A program made the translations under genes and the position numbers. DNA of 64,000 nt. It comes from Dehalococcoidia bacterium. GTDB lineage: Bacteria > Chloroflexota > Dehalococcoidia > UBA2979. Positions within the stretch are counted from its first letter, which is position 1; each line of letters opens with the position of its first letter. Under the pieces are notes generated by a model, which saw nothing but the letters and a program-made list of their open reading frames with translations, was not told where the DNA came from and did not search any database. The DNA is taken from NCBI GenBank assembly GCA_009692705.1, contig SHYR01000003.1, positions 5,170-69,169 on the forward strand. The letters run 5' to 3'. Positions 24,142 through 29,863 of the stretch are shown here, one piece after another.

Positions 24142-24591
24142 TCAGCCAGAGGCGAGCAGCTCCCGCACCAGCTCGCTGGCGCGGCGCCCGTCGGCGCGAC
24201 CCTCGAGCCGCGGCACGAGCTGGCCCATCACCTTGCCGAGGTCGCCCGGTCCGCTCGCGCCCGCAGCCGCGATCGCGGAGCGCGCAAGCGCCCGCAGCTC
24301 GTCGTCGGAAAGCGCGGCCGGGACGAAGGAGGCGATCACCTCCAGCTCTTCCTCCTCGGCGCGGGCTAGGTCTTCCCGCCGGCCCTTGCGGTACTCGGCG
24401 ATCGAGTCGCGGCGCTGCTTCGCCTCGCGCTGCAGCACGGCGATACATTCGCGGTCGTCGAGCTCGTGGCCGGCCGCGATGCGGCCGTTGCCGATGGCGG
24501 AGAGCAGCAGACGCATAATGTCGCGACGGCGCGTGTCGCCGCCCTTGATCGCCGCGGTCAGCTCGAAACGGACAGTCTCTTCGATCGGCAT
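24142..24591 (-). CDS. GatB/YqeY-domain protein
   Basis: MPIEETVRFELTAAIKGGDTRRRDIMRLLLSAI...LQREAKQRRDSIAEYRKGRREDLARAEEEELEVI...GDLGKVMGQLV. ATG at 24591 with GGGAGG upstream. The order rpsU-yqeY matches Firmicutes. Confidence 0.8.
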   Translation of the reverse strand: MPIEETVRFELTAAIKGGDTRRRDIMRLLLSAIGNGRIAAGHELDDRECIAVLQREAKQRRDSIAEYRKGRREDLARAEEEELEVIASFVPAALSDDELRALARSAIAAAGASGPGDLGKVMGQLVPRLEGRADGRRASELVRELLASG

Positions 24592-24630
24592 CGCGCCTCC
24601 CGGGACCAAGGCCCCGGCGTGGCCGGGGGC

Positions 24631-24840
24631 TCAGACGCGAAGCCGCTCCTCCTGCTTGCGCACCACCTTGCGCAACTTGCGCAGGCGTGCGGCCGCCTTC
24701 TTCTTGCGCCGCTCGGAGGGCTTCTCGTAGTACTCGTGCCGCCTGGCTTCGGTGAGGATCCCGTCCGCCTGCACGCGCTTGTTAAAGCGCTTCAGCGCAC
24801 CCTCCAGAGACTCCCCTTCGCCGACATGGACTTCGCTCAC
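24631..24840 (-). CDS. rpsU: 30S ribosomal protein S21
   Basis: 69 aa. SLEGALKRFNKRVQADGILTEARRHEYYEKPSERRKKK. Confidence 0.9.
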   Translation of the reverse strand: MSEVHVGEGESLEGALKRFNKRVQADGILTEARRHEYYEKPSERRKKKAAARLRKLRKVVRKQEERLRV

Positions 24841-24991
24841 GTGCCGCCCGTACCCCCTGCCGCACCACTCGGGCGCAGCCTCGGCGCCCGTTCCACACAG
24901 CGCGCGCGTCGATCGCGCGCACAGCCAGCGTAGGCAGGCGGCCGTGAGCGCGTCAAACGTGCGCTGCCGCCGCCACGCCCCGCCCGACCGG

Positions 24992-25135
24992 TCAGTCGGC
25001 CGAGGGCAGCACCTTGGGCTGCAACTCCTCCAGCGGACGGCCGTCGATCTTGAGGTCGCAGGTGCCCGGCTTGATGCAGAGCAGTTCGACGTTCGTCTGT
25101 GCGTCCTTGTAGCGCTTGCCGAGAGCTACCGCCAT
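24992..25135 (-). CDS. Unannotated small ORF (47 aa), paralogous to the ORF just upstream; GKRY...LPSAD type
   Basis: Own translation: MAVALGKRYKDAQTNVELLCIKPGTCDLKIDGRPLEELQPKVLPSAD. GGAG lies 7 nt before the ATG. It is below the ORF-track size cut-off. Confidence 0.4.
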   Translation of the reverse strand: MAVALGKRYKDAQTNVELLCIKPGTCDLKIDGRPLEELQPKVLPSAD

Positions 25136-25144
25136 GCCACGCTC

Positions 25145-25261
25145 CTATACTCGCACGAGTTCGTCGTCGCCATGGCGCAGGGTGCCTTCCCCGCCGCGCG
25201 TGACGATGAACTCGGCCCCGCACTTCGGACAGCGGTACCGCTTCCCCGTTTCGAGAGCCAT
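25145..25261 (-). CDS. Unannotated small ORF (38 aa), zinc-ribbon-like with a single CxxC
   Basis: Own translation: MALETGKRYRCPKCGAEFIVTRGGEGTLRHGDDELVRV. GGGGAGG lies directly upstream. High GC3. Confidence 0.45.
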   Translation of the reverse strand: MALETGKRYRCPKCGAEFIVTRGGEGTLRHGDDELVRV

Positions 25262-25340
25262 CGCCTCCCCCGCTCCCTGCCGGCGCGTTCGGTGCGCCCG
25301 TGCTCCCACCATCAACGTACCGCGCCGGCGCCCCGCGCAA

Positions 25341-26357
25341 CTACTGGACCGTCAGCGCCACCCGCATGCCAAGCTGGTAGTGGCCCGGCAGGTTGCAGAT
25401 CAGACTGTACTTCCCGGCCGCCAGCGTCAGCGTGAGGTCCTTCGTCTGGCCCGCCGGTAATTGCGCGATGCGCCCCAGCACCTTGAGTTGCTTCTCGTCC
25501 ACCGCGCCGCCGGCCTGTGGCAGCGCGTCTATCGCTGCTCCGCTCTGCGTCACCACGAACTCGTGCGCGATCACTCCCTTGTTGGCGACACGGAAGGTAG
25601 CCAGGCCGGCGTCGAGCGTTGCCGCCCCCATCTTGATCCCGTACGGGGCATCGCTGAGGGTAACCTCATTCAGCCTGGAGCCCGCGGGCGGTGGGCCCTG
25701 CGTCGCGGTCGCCACCGGCGTGCCGGCGGCCGCGGGCGCCGCTGGCGTCGCTGAGAAGGGGTCGCGCATGCGGAAGCTCTGCGCGGTCTCGCTGGCGAAC
25801 TGGCCGCAGTTGTTGCTGGTGACGGCAAGCGTGGCAGGGTCCTTCACCACGATCGCGGCGACCTGCTGCGCGGTCAGGCCCTCATCCGCATGCGCGGACT
25901 CCTCCGCCACTAGGTCCCAGCGGCCATTGGTGATCATCGTCACCACGTGGTTGACCTGCGTGTCGGAGAGCGGCCCCCCGAAGTGCTGGCTCCACGGCGG
26001 CATGAAAGTGTTGCTGCGCCCGCAGGAGATGGTGCTAAAGAGGAAGCTGCGGATGCCGTCCGCCTCCGCCGGCGAGGTCGGCGCAAGGCCGTACCGGTTG
26101 CCTTCGCCGAGGATCAGGAACGCGGGGCTGTTCAGCTTCGCGCCGACCCCGCCCTCCTCGGCGCCCCAACCTTCCAGCCCGTGGCAAGTGCGGCAGTTCT
26201 GCACGAAGAGGCGCGCGCCGCGGTTCGCGTTGCGCTCCGTGACCTCCCGGCGCGCGTCCACCTCGCGGCGCTGCTCGTTCACGAAGTAGCCACCGAAGAG
26301 CACGAAGCTGATGAACAGCAGGCCGATCATCACGTTCACTTGCTTGCCGGTGTTCAT
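25341..26357 (-). CDS. Membrane-anchored mono-haem cytochrome c fused to a C-terminal type-1 copper (cupredoxin) domain
   Basis: N-terminal TM helix, haem motif CRTCH (nt about 26181-26195), a Pro/Ala linker, then a cupredoxin with ligands AHEF...CNLPGHYQLGM. Confidence 0.8.
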   Translation of the reverse strand: MNTGKQVNVMIGLLFISFVLFGGYFVNEQRREVDARREVTERNANRGARLFVQNCRTCHGLEGWGAEEGGVGAKLNSPAFLILGEGNRYGLAPTSPAEADGIRSFLFSTISCGRSNTFMPPWSQHFGGPLSDTQVNHVVTMITNGRWDLVAEESAHADEGLTAQQVAAIVVKDPATLAVTSNNCGQFASETAQSFRMRDPFSATPAAPAAAGTPVATATQGPPPAGSRLNEVTLSDAPYGIKMGAATLDAGLATFRVANKGVIAHEFVVTQSGAAIDALPQAGGAVDEKQLKVLGRIAQLPAGQTKDLTLTLAAGKYSLICNLPGHYQLGMRVALTVQ

Positions 26358-26393
26358 CGACCCGCCGATCCGTCGCAGCGTGACACGCGGGCG

Positions 26394-27074
26394 CTAGGTG
26401 GCAAGGCCGGGGGCCTGGATCGCGCGCTGCGGGTTGTCCGGTCCGCCCGGTACGCGCGCGCCCGTCTGCACCGTGATGTTGCCGCTGGCGTCGACGTCGA
26501 TCTTCATCGTGTCCATCGAGCGCGGTGCCGGCCCGAACACGCGTACCCCGGCCTTGGTGTACGTGGAGCCGTGGCATGGGCAGCGAAACCAGCCGGTGTC
26601 GCCCTCGAAGGTGAAGTTGTTGCGCCACGGCACCGTGCAGCCCAGGTGCGGGCACTTGTGCCACAGCGCCAGCAGCCCGGCGGCGGCGCCGCTGCCGCCC
26701 GGGCGCTTCTCGGCGGGGTCCAAGTTGACGATCCAGAACTGCCCCTCGAGAAAGTGCTTGGGGTCCGCGCCCCTAGCGTAGTCCTTCACATTGCCGGCCG
26801 GCACCGGCGCGCCGAAGCCGCGCACGTTTCGCGGGTAGAAGAAATCGAGGAACAGCCCGACCGAGCCCAGCAGCGTGGCGCCGAGGCCGGTCCAAAACGA
26901 GGCGCGGATGAACCTGCGGCGCGAGAGCTCCGCCGACAGCGGCTGCGCCTGCGCGGCGGGCACGATCTGGCCCTCGCGCAGCTGCGTCCTGCGCGTGGCG
27001 ATCGCCTCACGCCAAGCGTCGGGCGGGCCGCCCGCCGTCCCCGCGGACTCGGTGGTCCGGGTTTCGCTGCTCAC
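26394..27074 (-). CDS. Rieske [2Fe-2S] subunit of a cytochrome bc/b6f-type complex
   Basis: Rieske boxes CPHLGC and CPCHGS, plus an N-terminal TM anchor. GTG start. Confidence 0.9.
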   Translation of the reverse strand: MSSETRTTESAGTAGGPPDAWREAIATRRTQLREGQIVPAAQAQPLSAELSRRRFIRASFWTGLGATLLGSVGLFLDFFYPRNVRGFGAPVPAGNVKDYARGADPKHFLEGQFWIVNLDPAEKRPGGSGAAAGLLALWHKCPHLGCTVPWRNNFTFEGDTGWFRCPCHGSTYTKAGVRVFGPAPRSMDTMKIDVDASGNITVQTGARVPGGPDNPQRAIQAPGLAT

Positions 27075-27114
27075 TGCACCACTCTCACTCGCTGCGCCGC
27101 CCTAGATTCGCTCG

Positions 27115-27996
27115 TCACGACACCGCAGGCTTCACGTCCCAGAACCAGAACAGCTCCATGCCCGAGCCACGGAAGAAGGTGCCGCTGATCGTAAGCGTGA
27201 GGAAGACGGCGATAAAGCCGGAGAACTGCACAATCATGTGGTCGCGTCGCGTCTTCGCGATCCCTAGCCGCCAGAGCACCAGCGAGAGCAGCAGCGGCAG
27301 CCCGACCATGAAGCTCACGGGGATGACCTGCTCCACCAGCACCGCCGGCAGGTTCACATCCAGATCGACCTTCGGCAGTCCCAGCAGGTCGGTGCGCAGC
27401 ACCTTGCTTCCGAGCGGGATGTGCCGCCACGACTCCGGCCAGGCGATGTTGTTCTGGATCGAACGCGCGTTGCGCAGCCAATTCAGCTTCGCCGGCCACT
27501 CCGCCACGTCGTGGCCCGTGAGTCGCGCCCACAGCACCACGTGCTTCTGGCCGTCCCACAGGATCAGCAGGATCGTGCCGACCGTGCCCACCACCGCACC
27601 GATCGCCGTCATCGTCCACGCGCGTGGGGTCGCCAGCCACTCGCCCTGGTGCTCGAGACTGCGGTCGAAGTATGGGATCGCGGCCAGCGCGGCCAGCGCC
27701 ACCGTCGGTACGATCACGCCGGCCAGCGCCGGGTGCATGTGCAGCAGCAGCTCCTGCAGGTTGAGGAAGTACCACGGCGCCTTCGAGGGGTCGGGCGTGT
27801 GTGCCGGGTTCGCGCGGTCCTGCAGCGGCGCATCGATCAGCACCGACAGCAGCGTGAAGGAGAGCGTGAACAGCACCGCCGAGATGAACTCGACGAAGAC
27901 GAGGTCGGGCCAGACCAGCAGCTCCTCTTCGCGCGAGCGGCGGGAGCGCGCACGCACGGCCGGCGACTGCGCCGCCGCCTGGGTGCTGATGACCAT
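27115..27996 (-). CDS. Cytochrome b C-terminal half / subunit IV-like protein (PetD/QcrB-C type) with extra C-terminal TM helices
   Basis: VWPDLVFVEF..., and PDPSKAPWYFLNLQELL (the PEWYFL-type motif). Multiple TM segments. Confidence 0.8.
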   Translation of the reverse strand: MVISTQAAAQSPAVRARSRRSREEELLVWPDLVFVEFISAVLFTLSFTLLSVLIDAPLQDRANPAHTPDPSKAPWYFLNLQELLLHMHPALAGVIVPTVALAALAAIPYFDRSLEHQGEWLATPRAWTMTAIGAVVGTVGTILLILWDGQKHVVLWARLTGHDVAEWPAKLNWLRNARSIQNNIAWPESWRHIPLGSKVLRTDLLGLPKVDLDVNLPAVLVEQVIPVSFMVGLPLLLSLVLWRLGIAKTRRDHMIVQFSGFIAVFLTLTISGTFFRGSGMELFWFWDVKPAVS

Positions 27997-28019
27997 CGCG
28001 GTCCTCCGCCCCTACGGTG

Positions 28020-28775
28020 CTACAGCGGTCTGGCCAGTCCGCCGTCGCGGCGAATGCGCCAGAAATGCACGGTCATGAATACCGCCGCCAGCAACGGCAG
28101 CCCCACCACGTGCAGCGTATAAAAACGGATCAGCGCCGACGCCCCGACGTCGAAGCCGCCGATCAGCACGAAGCGGTTCGGCTCACCGAGGATCGGTGCC
28201 GAGCCCACCATGTTGGTGCCCACGGTGATCGCCCACAGCGAGAGCTCGTCCCACGGCAGCAGGTAGCCGGTGAACGACAGCAGCAGCGTGAGCACCAGCA
28301 GCACCACGCCCACTACCCAGTTGAACTCGCGGGGGGGCTTGTAAGCGCCAGTGTAGAAGACCCGCATCATGTGCATCAGCACCGCCAGCACCATGCCATG
28401 CGCCATCCAGCGGTGCAGATTGCGCATCAGCATCCCGAAGCGCACGTCCGTCTGGATGCGCTGCATGTCCTCGTACGCGCGCTCCACCGAGGGCACGTAA
28501 TAGAACATCAGCAGCACGCCGGTGATCGTGAGCCCCAGGAAGAGGAAGAACGAGAGCCCGCCGAGGCAGAACGTATGCGTGATCTTGACGTGCGTGCGGT
28601 GGATGCGCGTCGGGTGCAGGTGCAGGAAAACGTTGGTAGCGACGGCCAGCATCTGGTTGCGGGGGGTATTGGGGTAGCCGGAGCGGAATACCGAGCGCCA
28701 CACGTAGTTGTGGAAGATCGCGTCGTAGACGCGGTCGCCGAGCGGGCGGCTTTCCGGGCGCTCCGTCGTCACCAT
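28020..28775 (-). CDS. Cytochrome b (b6-type, N-terminal four-helix haem-binding half)
   Basis: [40 protein letters not shown]..., [10 protein letters not shown] and RFYTLHV, with the His ligands in place. Confidence 0.9.
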
Positions 28776-28832
28776 CAGCGTCCCCGTTCCCAGCGCGCTC
28801 GCGACCGCACCTGCGGCTGTCGCGCTCGCGCC

Positions 28833-28940
28833 CTAGGCTTCCCACCAGCGGCCGAGCACGACCAGCACCGCCAGCGTGCCGAGCAGGGTTACGAATACGC
28901 CCACCAGCTCCAGCGCCTCGCCGACCTCGCCGAAGATCAC
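28833..28940 (-). CDS. Unannotated single-TM micropeptide (35 aa) immediately upstream of cytochrome b; possible small complex subunit
   Basis: Own translation from GTG 28940: (M)IFGEVGEALELVGVFVTLLGTLAVLVVLGRWWEA. GGAGG lies 5 nt upstream, and the ORF ends 57 nt before the cytochrome b start. Confidence 0.3.
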   Translation of the reverse strand: MIFGEVGEALELVGVFVTLLGTLAVLVVLGRWWEA

Positions 28941-29119
28941 CGCCGCCTCCGAGTCCGAGCGCTGTCGCGCGACGCGCCTGCGGCGACAGCCGCCCGTCGG
29001 TGACCGCCTTCACAAGCGGGCCGATGCTAGCCCCGGTCCGATCTAGCGTCAAGGAATCCGGCAGGCGGCGCCCCAGCGGCGGCGCCGCCGCCGCTGGGGC
29101 GCCGCCGCACGTAACCGCC

Positions 29120-29863
29120 TCACGCTCGCGGCACCAGCGGCACGCCGCCCGCGCGCAACCGCCAGATGCCGCGCAGGTCCTCAATCGCGGTGCGCACGAT
29201 CGCCACGCGGCTGTCTGGATCGTCGGTCCAGCGCACCGGCACCTCGCGCAGCCGGAAGCCATTCGCCTGCGCCACCACCAGCAGCTCGGAGTCGAAGAAC
29301 CAGCGCGTATCCCGCACCAGCGGCAGCAGCTGCCGCGCCGCCGCGCGCGAGATCGCCTTGAAGCCGCACTGCGCGTCGCTCACCCGCAGCCCGATCACCA
29401 GCCGCAGGATCGCGATGTACGCGCGAGAGATCAGCTCGCGCCGCAGCCCGCGACGGGTCTGCGAGCGCGCGTGCAACCGCGTTCCGTAGGCGATGTCCGC
29501 CTCCCCCACCGCAATCGGGTCGACCAGCTCCGGCAGGTGCGCCAGGTCGGTCGCCAGGTCCACGTCCATGTAGGCGCACACGTCCGCCGGCGAGGTCAGC
29601 CAGGCGACCCGCAGCGCGATGCCGCGCCCCTTCGCTGGCACGTGCAGCGCCACCACCCGACCGGGGTGTTCCTCCTGCAGCCGCCGCGCGATCGCCAGCG
29701 TGCCGTCAGTGGAAGCGTTGTCCGCCACCACCACGCGCCAGTCGTGCCGCGGCTCGCCGGGGTGGTCGTCGAGCCAGCGCAGCACGCTGGCAACGCTCTG
29801 CGCGAGCGCACGCTGCTCATTGTAGACTGGGAGCACGAGGTCGATGGAGGCCACAGCGGCCAT
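29120..29863 (-). CDS. Family 2 glycosyltransferase (polyprenol-phosphate sugar transferase type)
   Basis: Start at MAAVASIDLVLPVYNE. ADNASTDGT, YMDVDLATD (the DxD motif) and CGFKA are present. Confidence 0.8.
   Translation of the reverse strand: MAAVASIDLVLPVYNEQRALAQSVASVLRWLDDHPGEPRHDWRVVVADNASTDGTLAIARRLQEEHPGRVVALHVPAKGRGIALRVAWLTSPADVCAYMDVDLATDLAHLPELVDPIAVGEADIAYGTRLHARSQTRRGLRRELISRAYIAILRLVIGLRVSDAQCGFKAISRAAARQLLPLVRDTRWFFDSELLVVAQANGFRLREVPVRWTDDPDSRVAIVRTAIEDLRGIWRLRAGGVPLVPRA

Follow-up and report, generated by a model that had tools for sequence, protein, structure and literature searches.

In textbook complex III, a c-type haem passes its electrons on to a carrier that is a molecule of its own. 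Exceptions are known: a second haem is fused in actinobacteria, heliobacteria, and epsilon-proteobacteria, and archaea use a separate copper protein. The window, that is, the whole stretch of 64,000 nucleotides from a Dehalococcoidia bacterium (contig SHYR01000003.1) that was analyzed, contains a gene in which a cytochrome c domain is joined to a blue-copper domain, and this locus raises the question of what part such a protein plays in the respiratory chain. A sequence-only reading of the DNA had proposed that the haem acceptor and a plastocyanin-like carrier of a Rieske/cytochrome b complex are one polypeptide, forming a hard-wired relay to the terminal oxidase. Our analysis makes it likely that the fusion protein serves as the c-type subunit of complex III, here a b6-type Rieske/cytochrome b quinol oxidase, in an aerobic, uncultured bacterium of the class Dehalococcoidia, in which electrons would pass from the Rieske cluster to haem c, to the tethered copper, and on to an oxidase.

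The cytochrome c-cupredoxin fusion gene

The fusion gene (25341–26357, minus strand) is a single uninterrupted ORF with an ATG start, encoding 338 amino acid residues plus a stop. Its start codon is fixed because the N-terminus MNTxKQVN is kept in the homologues. The membrane anchor, single CRTCH site, Pro/Ala-rich linker, and C-terminal cupredoxin described for this protein in the sequence-only reading were all found at the sequence level. That reading had also considered that a stop codon missed in the linker might separate two genes; no such stop is present, and the same continuous ORF was observed in 75 or more homologues. Joining of two genes by an assembly or sequencing artefact was ruled out because the ORF is unbroken not only in the window but also in the cupredoxin-bearing homologues of 79 clusters, which come from independent assemblies. 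The subunit is now annotated merely as "c-type cytochrome" or "hypothetical".

The N-terminal membrane anchor (residues 9–25; 26283–26333, minus strand) consists of the hydrophobic run VMIGLLFISFVLFGGYF, and residues 3–59 form one long helix with a pLDDT above 90 in the AF2 model. The flexible Ala/Pro/Thr/Gly linker (residues 201–227, about 26 residues; 25677–25757, minus strand) contains 30% A, 20% P, 15% T, and 11% G and was modeled with a pLDDT of 52–78. The P200–F255 spacing across the linker is 47–59 residues in 75 homologues. In the full-length AF2 model of the fusion (pLDDT 88.5), confidence is high for the cupredoxin sandwich and low for the linker. The pTM of this model was 0.81, which suggests that the haem and copper domains may perhaps be held in a fixed docked arrangement rather than on a swinging arm.

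Residues 40–200 (25758–26240, minus strand) constitute a mono-haem class I cytochrome c domain with a lineage-specific extension. Cytochrome_CBB3 (PF13442) matched residues 43–139 with 28.4 bits (Pfam cut-off, 27), and PF00034 matched the fusion with 22.9 bits (cut-off, 21.3). The haem c attachment motif CRTCH (residues 55–59; 26181–26195, minus strand) was read directly from the sequence, and CxxCH is found at position 55 in nearly all homologues. C55, C58, H59, M119, and the Cys pair C112/C184 are invariant among 75 full-length homologues, and M119 in NTFMPPW is, judging from its position, the predicted axial (sixth) haem ligand. No close solved structure was found for the haem domain when an AF2 model of residues 1–200 (pLDDT 83.9) was searched with Foldseek; the cytochrome c domain of cd1 nitrite reductase and cytochrome cL ranked highest, with no E-value below 0.26. 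Neither Pfam nor NCBIfam detected homology to c1 or f, and c1 chains appeared in Foldseek at E ≥ 1.4 with a probability below 0.1. Among the known Rieske partners, no significant relative of the haem domain was found by structure or by sequence.

The C-terminal domain (residues 228–338; 25344–25676, minus strand) is a predicted type-1 cupredoxin of the auracyanin/azurin group, and its ligands suggest that it is loaded with copper. Domain searches of the kind proposed earlier placed both domains above the curated Pfam thresholds; for the copper domain, Copper-bind (PF00127) matched residues 250–338 with 24.6 bits against a cut-off of 21.2. The cupredoxin fold that had been proposed was recovered in the AF2 model, which has eight strands over residues 228–337 with a pLDDT of about 90–97. 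Foldseek returned the auracyanin 6kol as the top match (2e-7), together with azurins (about 1e-6) and auracyanins A and B (5–7e-6), and 6kol was also the top match in a profile search against PDB sequences (5e-8). A Pfam match to SoxE was marginal (21.6 bits; cut-off, 21) and covered residues 301–337 only.

The full set of type-1 copper ligands claimed for this domain was likewise found. The first ligand, His265 in IAHEF (25563–25565, minus strand), aligns with the ligand His of auracyanin and is followed by Glu, and the other three are in the copper loop C321-N-L-P-G-H326-Y-Q-L-G-M331 (25365–25397, minus strand). H265, C321, H326, and M331 are invariant among 75 full-length homologues, and the C-x4-H-x4-M loop is present in 79/79 cupredoxin-bearing proteins among P0001–P0080. 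The loop aligns with LCTYPAHYAGGM (6kol) and ICTFPGHYLAGM (auracyanin B), and the ligands match one for one. This loop and the best matches are auracyanin/azurin-like, and the label "plastocyanin-like" was accordingly dropped; plastocyanin-type loops (C-x2-H-x2-4-M) occur in other families. The invariance of the haem and copper ligands across 75 homologues is far beyond chance.

A conserved Rieske/cytochrome b cassette

The fusion gene is the fifth gene of a seven-gene cassette on the minus strand, consisting of a 35-aa micro-ORF, cytochrome b6, subunit IV, Rieske, the c-Cu fusion, and two zinc-ribbon-like micro-ORFs. ORF and profile analysis gave the same order from the micropeptide to the fusion as the sequence-only reading. 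Its description of the fusion as the terminal gene was not borne out, since two conserved micro-ORFs come after the fusion in nearly all relatives: a 38-aa zinc-ribbon/desulforedoxin-like one (gene 6; 25145–25261, minus strand) with a weak Pfam match to Desulfoferrod_N, and a 47-aa one paralogous to it (gene 7; 24992–25135, minus strand). Upstream of the cassette, a sigma-70-like promoter match, TTGACG-17-TAGCAT (29024–29052, minus strand; 9/12, a consensus match only), is the only such match within 24500–29300.

The cytochrome b6-type subunit of 251 aa (28020–28775, minus strand) was recognized by Pfam Cytochrome_B (2.2e-45) and, among NCBIfam profiles, scored 288 bits for ExtP (cut-off, 290) and 203 bits for PRK03735 (cytochrome b6). 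It contains four conserved His and FCLGG, in which the Cys position is that of haem cn attachment in b6f. The subunit-IV-like membrane subunit of 293 aa (27115–27996, minus strand) matched Pfam Cytochrom_B_C (1.3e-6) and NCBIfam ExtQ/subunit IV, and its APWY Qo motif was read directly in KAPWYFLNLQE; Chloroflexi belong to the APWY clade of Qo motifs (PMC4122944). The Rieske iron-sulfur subunit of 226 aa (26394–27074, minus strand), with a twin-arginine signal, matched Pfam Rieske (8.8e-7) and NCBIfam PetC (4e-16), and SRRRFIRASF, CPHLGC, and CPCHGS were read directly in its sequence. A split cytochrome b (b6 and subunit IV with the Qo motif) is thus encoded in one operon with a Rieske 2Fe-2S protein, which identifies the complex as b6-type.

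The micro-ORFs are conserved together with the larger genes. The 35-aa single-helix micro-ORF, gene 1 of the cassette (28833–28940, minus strand), is a listed ORF, and a gene of 33–35 aa was called at its position in four loci (L001–L004). A 38–39-aa gene is present at the gene-6 position in L001, L002, L004, and the P0117 locus, and a gene was called at the gene-7 position in L001–L004. Homologues of the 35-aa micro-ORF were found by phmmer upstream of cytochrome b6 in 14/16 loci of other families; those of the gene-6 product and, by phmmer, of the 47-aa micro-ORF were each found in 14/16 other loci. The cassette micro35-b6-suIV-Rieske-cX-z38-z47 is kept in L001–L004 and 16 further loci (20 in total), which together span some 14 family codes within the class. 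Apart from the fusion, the cassette contains no gene for a c-type cytochrome. The conserved operon position suggests that the c subunit associates with the b6/Rieske complex, and operon position and conservation together point to docking of its haem domain on the Rieske protein.

Module exchange and the proposed electron path

In relatives, the syntenic locus is flanked by purM-purH-GT2 and rpsU-yqeY-pgpH-purQ, and the C-terminal module of the orthologous gene is exchangeable. A single cupredoxin occupies this place in L001 and L002 and a pair of them in L004; L003 and the P0117 locus have a second CxxCH domain instead. In the GTDB family of the window, the copper form was present in 6/17 sampled genomes and the di-haem form in at least 8/17, one of the latter being in the same genus as copper forms. 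Among 81 representatives of 50%-identity clusters with the family signature, 46 carry a cupredoxin and 13 carry a second haem, and the haem label requires at least eight copper/haem changes on well-supported branches of the haem-domain tree. Proteins in the tree that appeared to contain only the cytochrome c domain often have a haem domain identical or near-identical to those of copper forms, and most of them are read as incomplete gene calls rather than a fourth architecture; an exception is the L036 type, a complete protein with no cupredoxin. When the first haem domain and the CoxB cytochrome c domain were considered as possible sources of the second haem domain in the di-haem relatives, the BLASTP E-values were only 0.007 and 0.023, respectively.

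This survey of related genomes, which had been suggested earlier, revealed that the fusion recurs across the class with copper and di-haem variants. Because close relatives swap the cupredoxin for a second cytochrome c at the same locus, the C-terminal module is probably an electron-transfer module. The module swap is new in this analysis and, at the level of genes, is the strongest evidence pointing to a relay.

In the chain that we consider likely, the N-terminal helix would hold the fusion protein in the membrane, and the mono-haem cytochrome c domain on the outer face would accept an electron from the Rieske cluster, a task that falls elsewhere to cytochrome c1 or f or, in di-haem subunits, to the first haem. 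The electron would then move within the same polypeptide from haem c to the type-1 copper of the auracyanin-like cupredoxin, which, on its tether of about 26 Ala/Pro/Thr-rich residues, would act as a captive carrier to the terminal oxidase. The likely acceptor would be the cytochrome c domain of a caa3-type oxidase subunit II, because the oxidase of the relatives is of the caa3 type. The earlier proposal of a haem acceptor and a copper carrier in one polypeptide, with a relay to the oxidase, agrees with the sequence-level tests (domains, ligands, fold, and module swap). Its term "hard-wired" is too strong because the link is a flexible Ala/Pro/Thr tether.

It is unlikely, in our estimation, that the fusion is, rather than a fixed subunit, a mobile carrier held at the membrane (comparable to cytochrome cy of Rhodobacter and c550 of Bacillus) whose place in the operon is fortuitous, or that the order is reversed, with the Rieske cluster reducing copper directly and haem c serving as the outlet. 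Archaeal sulfocyanin and halocyanin are thought to be reduced directly by Rieske. The anchoring by a single N-terminal helix and the lack of c1, f, or QcrC homology beyond the haem motif would suit such an arrangement, as would the use of blue copper proteins instead of class I cytochrome c by archaeal Rieske/cytochrome b modules (PMC4122944). However, the cassette contains no other candidate acceptor for the Rieske cluster, and the haem domain is invariant whereas the C-terminal module varies (copper, two coppers, haem, or none detected), a pattern that fits a fixed docking domain with a variable outlet. Moreover, the di-haem relatives are without any copper, so haem c must be able to accept electrons from Rieske.

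The oxidase partner was inferred from relatives because COX1 and COX2 were not found in the MAG of the window itself (1.18 Mb, 58 contigs, 77% complete). An A-type COX1 was present in 12/12 tested relatives of the same family, and an oxidase subunit II with CuA and a C-terminal cytochrome c domain (caa3-type) was identified in one copper-type and one di-haem-type genome. A search of this MAG for a cytochrome c maturation gene (PF01578/Cytochrom_C_asm) was likewise negative. Relative G092 has its cox and ccm genes side by side, with CcmF adjoining the cox operon; one missing contig could therefore explain both gaps, and we attribute them to the completeness of the MAG. The organism may nevertheless truly lack cox and ccm.

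The tethered copper might feed an acceptor other than an aerobic oxidase, such as copper nitrite reductase, nitrous oxide reductase, or another periplasmic enzyme, or the complex might run in reverse, a reading that we consider very unlikely. The missing COX1 and COX2 are compatible with it, as is the role of the cupredoxins azurin and pseudoazurin as physiological donors to denitrification enzymes; the incompleteness of the MAG and the A-type oxidase in all 12 same-family relatives argue against it. The genome of the window also encodes two free lipoprotein cupredoxins, 43–45% identical to the fused domain, so that the tethered copper, even in the preferred chain from Rieske to oxidase, may not be the only or final carrier.

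Least probable of all is that the cupredoxin handles copper rather than electrons, whether in CopI-like resistance, in copper storage, or as a chaperone during the assembly of oxidase CuA/CuB: the NCBIfam matches over the C-terminal 40–50 residues are weak and far under their cut-offs (CopI, NF051440, 28.6 bits against 280; EfeO, 21.6 bits against 270), NF047895 at 13.6 bits against 200 also speaks against CopI membership, and, although Glu follows His265 where Asn is usual in plastocyanin and azurin, the type-1 H/C/H/M set is complete, invariant, and aligned with the auracyanin ligands, and the domain has repeatedly been exchanged for a cytochrome c in the orthologous gene, a swap that fits the carriage of electrons but not the delivery of copper.

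Comparison with known systems and significance

In actinobacteria, QcrC is the di-haem cytochrome cc that belongs to the bcc part of the III2IV2 supercomplex (for example, PDB 6hwh, 7q21, and 6adq). Like QcrC, the fusion is a predicted c subunit with a membrane anchor, and its gene lies beside those for Rieske and cytochrome b. It would also resemble QcrC in function, with tandem redox domains of which the first takes electrons from Rieske and the second passes them on to the oxidase, so that a soluble carrier is unneeded; the di-haem relatives share this logic. In contrast to QcrC, whose second center is a haem c, the second center of the fusion is a predicted type-1 copper in a cupredoxin fold. 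The fusion also differs in its N-terminal anchor, in the flexible Ala/Pro/Thr tether between its domains, and in the split cytochrome b (b6 plus subunit IV with the APWY motif) encoded beside it. Sequence similarity to QcrC is limited to the haem motif, with PDB matches spanning only about 40 residues. The QcrC profile NF050122 gave 25.2 bits against a cut-off of 200, and the fusion has one CxxCH rather than two; by sequence, it is an analogue of QcrC and not a member. No sign of a counterpart to the supercomplex emerged from the genes analyzed.

The copper domain has its best fold and profile match in proteins of the same phylum, auracyanins A and B of Chloroflexus and the Roseiflexus auracyanin (PDB 2aan, 1qhq/1ov8, and 6kol), with which it shares the loop C-x-x-P-[GA]-H-Y-x-x-G-M and aligned ligands. 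As described in PMC10873879 and PMC5826079 (citing Majumder et al. 2013), auracyanins are connected to the membrane by a flexible linker and are reduced by a c-type haem of a quinol-oxidizing complex. Each auracyanin stands alone, anchored by a lipid or helix of its own, and has Alternative Complex III as a partner, whereas the copper domain of the fusion is covalently part of the predicted cytochrome c subunit in a Rieske/cytochrome b complex. Sequence identity is about 22–26%, and the residue after the first His ligand is Asn in auracyanins instead of the Glu in the fusion.

Sulfocyanin SoxE of the Sulfolobus SoxM supercomplex and halocyanin of haloarchaea are membrane-bound blue copper proteins through which electrons move from Rieske/cytochrome b to a haem-copper oxidase (PMC4122944); these archaeal systems have copper instead of cytochrome c, whereas the fusion has domains for both. 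Natural fusions of cytochrome c and cupredoxin-type copper centers also occur among three-domain copper nitrite reductases (for example, the enzyme in PMC13324648), where the physiological redox partner, a cytochrome c or a cupredoxin, is tethered. Those enzymes are soluble and catalytic, whereas the fusion would form the outlet of a quinol oxidase in the membrane, and its copper domain has no catalytic site. The mono-haem cytochrome c-556 in the Rieske/cytochrome b complex of Chlorobaculum tepidum and the Bacillus subunit IV-cytochrome c fusion QcrC are small class I c subunits, in place of c1 or f, of b6-type complexes with onward transfer without a soluble carrier (PMC10172866). Neither has a copper domain, and neither showed a significant sequence or fold match to the fusion (profile search against PDB and Foldseek).

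No published description of this c-Cu fusion was found in the literature covered, which concerned bc complexes of Chloroflexi and Dehalococcoidia, cupredoxins and auracyanins, and fusions, and included Ward et al. 2018, Kao & Hunte 2014, and Dibrova et al. 2017; most subscription journals lay outside this coverage, so the absence is no proof.

The fusion would place a haem and a blue-copper center in one complex III subunit, in which the copper module has repeatedly been traded for a haem module on the same scaffold and at the same locus. A bolder reading, possible but on balance doubtful, is a fully captive high-potential chain without a diffusible carrier, composed of Rieske, the anchored haem c, a swinging copper arm, and the caa3 cytochrome c, in which lineages toggle the metal of the arm between Cu and Fe in cis with metal availability. 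If so, the plastocyanin/cytochrome c6 switch would have an equivalent within a single molecule, and copper would, for the first time in a bacterial Rieske/cytochrome b complex, be an intrinsic redox cofactor. The copper and haem variants form a natural matched protein set that could reveal how tethered carriers work and how interchangeable copper and haem carriers are, and the fusion itself may serve as a small expressible two-center protein for the study of intramolecular haem-to-copper electron transfer. For this large, uncultured, and environmentally common class, the fusion would provide an annotation marker for respiration.

Domain composition of the cytochrome c-cupredoxin gene

In the window, which has a GC content of about 72%, the gene under study (25341-26357, minus strand) formed one 338-aa frame with an ATG start, and no stop codon was found in its Pro/Ala-rich stretch. 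The domain searches proposed by the sequence-only reading placed Cytochrome_CBB3 (28.4 bits; cut-off 27) and Cytochrom_C (22.9 bits; cut-off 21.3) at residues 43-139 and Copper-bind (24.6 bits; cut-off 21.2) at residues 250-338 by Pfam. The claimed fusion was thus confirmed as a single gene, with no missed stop in the linker.

A search of 5.8 billion proteins yielded 226 matches, and 79 of the best 80 were full-length homologues with the same architecture: the CxxCH motif stood at position 55, and a C-x4-H-x4-M loop lay in the C-terminal part. They were publicly annotated as 'c-type cytochrome' or 'hypothetical', and by JGI as 'cupredoxin-like copper-binding protein / mono/diheme cytochrome c family protein'. 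When 75 of these homologues were aligned, the predicted haem ligands (C55, C58, H59, and M119), the predicted copper ligands (H265, C321, H326, and M331), and a further Cys pair (C112/C184) were invariant. This pair probably forms a disulfide stapling a lineage-specific extension (residues 150-200) to the cytochrome core. The N-terminus MNTxKQVN was kept among the homologues, which fixes the start codon.

AlphaFold2, run on the homologue alignment, gave a model (pLDDT 88.5, pTM 0.81) with a long N-terminal helix reaching from the membrane anchor to the haem motif (residues 3-59), a helical cytochrome domain, a linker of low confidence (residues 201-227), and an eight-stranded sandwich (residues 228-337). 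The best PDB match by Foldseek was Roseiflexus auracyanin 6kol (E = 2e-7); azurins and auracyanins A and B came next, and a profile search of PDB sequences with the family returned the same order. HMMER aligned the HE.., C, H, and M of the family with the ligand residues in 6kol (LCTYPAHYAGGM) and in auracyanin B (ICTFPGHYLAGM). Because these three analyses agree, the copper domain, first read as plastocyanin-like, is better described as auracyanin-like. The haem domain, a divergent cytochrome c of class I, had no significant structural neighbour in Foldseek when modelled alone (pLDDT 83.9; best E-value, 0.26). The linker composition (A 30%, P 20%, T 15%, and G 11%) and the narrow range of the P200-F255 distance, kept to 47-59 residues in the 75 homologues, suggest a flexible arm of constrained length.

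Exchange of copper and haem at the C-terminus

The most informative result of the analysis was a module swap. The homologues P0081-P0120 were 50-60% identical in the N-terminal 200 residues and had no copper loop, carrying instead a second CxxCH at approximately residues 230-290; Pfam assigned two cytochrome c domains to P0095. These di-haem genes occupied the same syntenic locus as the copper forms, as did P0009 and P0020, which bear a tandem pair of cupredoxins. Among 17 sampled genomes of the window's GTDB family, six had the copper form, one with Leu for the axial Met, and in the other 11 the match was confined to the N-terminal part. All eight that were read of these 11 were di-haem, including G238, whose genus also contains three copper-type genomes.

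When the first 200 residues were searched exhaustively against 1.84 billion representatives, 218 proteins were found at E <= 1e-10. Among the matches listed, 81 representatives bore the family signature: 46 carried a cupredoxin, 13 were di-haem, 10 of at least 250 aa had no detected second centre, and 12 were short fragments. The loop was of the auracyanin type in 10 and of the plastocyanin type (C-x2-H-x2-4-M) in 36 of the 46 listed cupredoxin representatives, five of which had two copper domains. In a maximum-likelihood tree built from 115 haem-domain rows, two clades were well supported, one of auracyanin-type copper and haem forms, including the window protein, and the other mainly of plastocyanin-type copper forms with some haem forms; the haem label required at least eight changes on well-supported branches. 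The architectures and the tree indicate that the C-terminal slot was repeatedly filled by a copper or haem one-electron carrier, which is what one would expect of an electron outlet. A copper-handling role of the cupredoxin domain is hard to reconcile with this repeated exchange.

Other orthologues departed from these forms. Replacement of Met by Leu at the axial position raises the potential in other cupredoxins, and a copper-type orthologue of the window's family (L040:3874-4875, plus strand; genome G038) had the loop CSVPGHREGGL with this replacement. In another family of the class, the c subunit encoded at L033:3567-5441 (plus strand) had its haem domain and cupredoxin separated by five LysM domains (Pfam LysM, 2e-45). 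LysM is a peptidoglycan-binding domain, and its presence suggests that the arm runs into the cell wall or is attached to it. Comparable repeats were seen by eye in L032:3993-5648 (plus strand). The c subunits of L034, L030, L031, L041, L044, and L028 had inserts of 100-400 residues between the conserved GRWDL and CGQ, built of approximately 45-residue repeats (..RIdDE.v.V..v....TV.RG..GT.A..H..G); in L034 and L028, the insert matched no Pfam family. The complete 354-aa orthologue L036:3477-4541 (minus strand; genome G258) ended soon after CGQ and had a long Ala/Glu/Asp-rich helical segment and neither a cupredoxin nor a second haem; it is possibly a natural 'arm-less' form.

The seven-gene cassette

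Upstream of the fusion gene, on the minus strand, were genes for a Rieske protein carrying a twin-arginine signal, a 293-aa subunit-IV-like protein containing KAPWYFLNLQE, the APWY Qo motif, and a 251-aa cytochrome b6 (28020-28775), with a 35-aa, single-helix micro-ORF (28833-28940, minus strand) in front and a promoter-like consensus match upstream of it. Pfam, NCBIfam, and the sequence upheld this order as originally read. The cytochrome b6 retained the Cys within FCLGG, which we take to correspond to the Cys that binds haem cn in b6f and Firmicute complexes, and its top NCBIfam match was ExtP of a selenite/tellurite reduction operon (288.4 bits; cut-off 290). According to Kao & Hunte (PMC4122944), the cytochrome b APWY clade includes Chloroflexi, in agreement with the taxon names of our homologues, 'Dehalococcoidia bacterium' MAGs.

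Four long homologue-bearing contigs shared the neighbourhood purM, purH, glycosyltransferase, cassette, rpsU, yqeY, pgpH, and purQ. The cassette comprised a 33-35-aa ORF, cytochrome b6, subunit IV, Rieske, the c subunit (its sole c-type cytochrome gene), a 38-39-aa ORF, and a 47-aa ORF. It was found again in 16 further loci from approximately 14 family codes of the class, with both trailing micro-ORFs in 14 of the 16. Since these two ORFs trail across related cassettes, the fusion gene is the fifth of seven and not, as had been proposed, the terminal one. Because they occur in nearly every related cassette (L001-L004 and L029-L044), they probably belong to the unit. In the window they lie at 24992-25261 (minus strand) as two paralogous micro-ORFs of 38 aa (zinc-ribbon/desulforedoxin-like) and 47 aa, whose products had neither a signal peptide nor a membrane helix. 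The 35-aa ORF was conserved in position, and phmmer detected homologues in 14 of the 16 distant loci; its product would fit a small b6f-like accessory subunit.

Predicted electron path and comparison with known systems

In the window's own MAG (G000; 1.18 Mb, 58 contigs, 77% complete), COX1, COX2, and a cytochrome c maturation gene (CcmF/CcsA-type) were not found. A-type COX1 was present in all 12 tested relatives of the window's family, and subunit II of G092 (copper type) and G069 (di-haem type) combined a CuA motif with a C-terminal cytochrome c domain, indicating a caa3-type oxidase in both. Since the ccm genes directly adjoin the cox operon in G092, one unbinned contig could explain both absences. 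Two free auracyanin-like cupredoxins were encoded at G000:C2:2877-3443 (L025) and G000:C22:341-808 (L026), both on the plus strand. They had lipoprotein signal peptides, Ala/Gly/Thr linkers, and the loops CNVVGHYQLGM and CNVATHYELGM, respectively, and were 43-45% identical to the fused copper domain.

We consider it fairly probable that electrons would pass from quinol to Rieske, to the haem c of the N-domain, to the type-1 Cu of the C-domain, to the cytochrome c domain of CoxB, and then via CuA to haems a/a3. The hard-wired haem-to-copper relay of the sequence-only reading is supported at the sequence level and strengthened by the copper/haem swap. However, because fused and free auracyanin-like carriers coexist in the same genome, 'hard-wired' is to be taken as 'tethered' and does not mean 'exclusive'.

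By function, the actinobacterial di-haem QcrC is closest to this subunit; by sequence, the protein lies outside the QcrC family, with a score of 25 bits where the cut-off is 200. The closest relatives of its copper domain, the auracyanins, are free and serve Alternative Complex III. In archaea, the link from Rieske/cytochrome b to the oxidase is made by separate blue copper proteins, sulfocyanin and halocyanin (PMC4122944). Among copper nitrite reductases, there are known examples with a tethered cytochrome c or cupredoxin partner (PMC13324648). Our literature search found no published description of a Rieske/cytochrome b complex with a subunit that joins cytochrome c to a cupredoxin. Judged from its predicted genes, such a subunit is widespread in an uncultured class, and it is readily testable by expression and spectroscopy.
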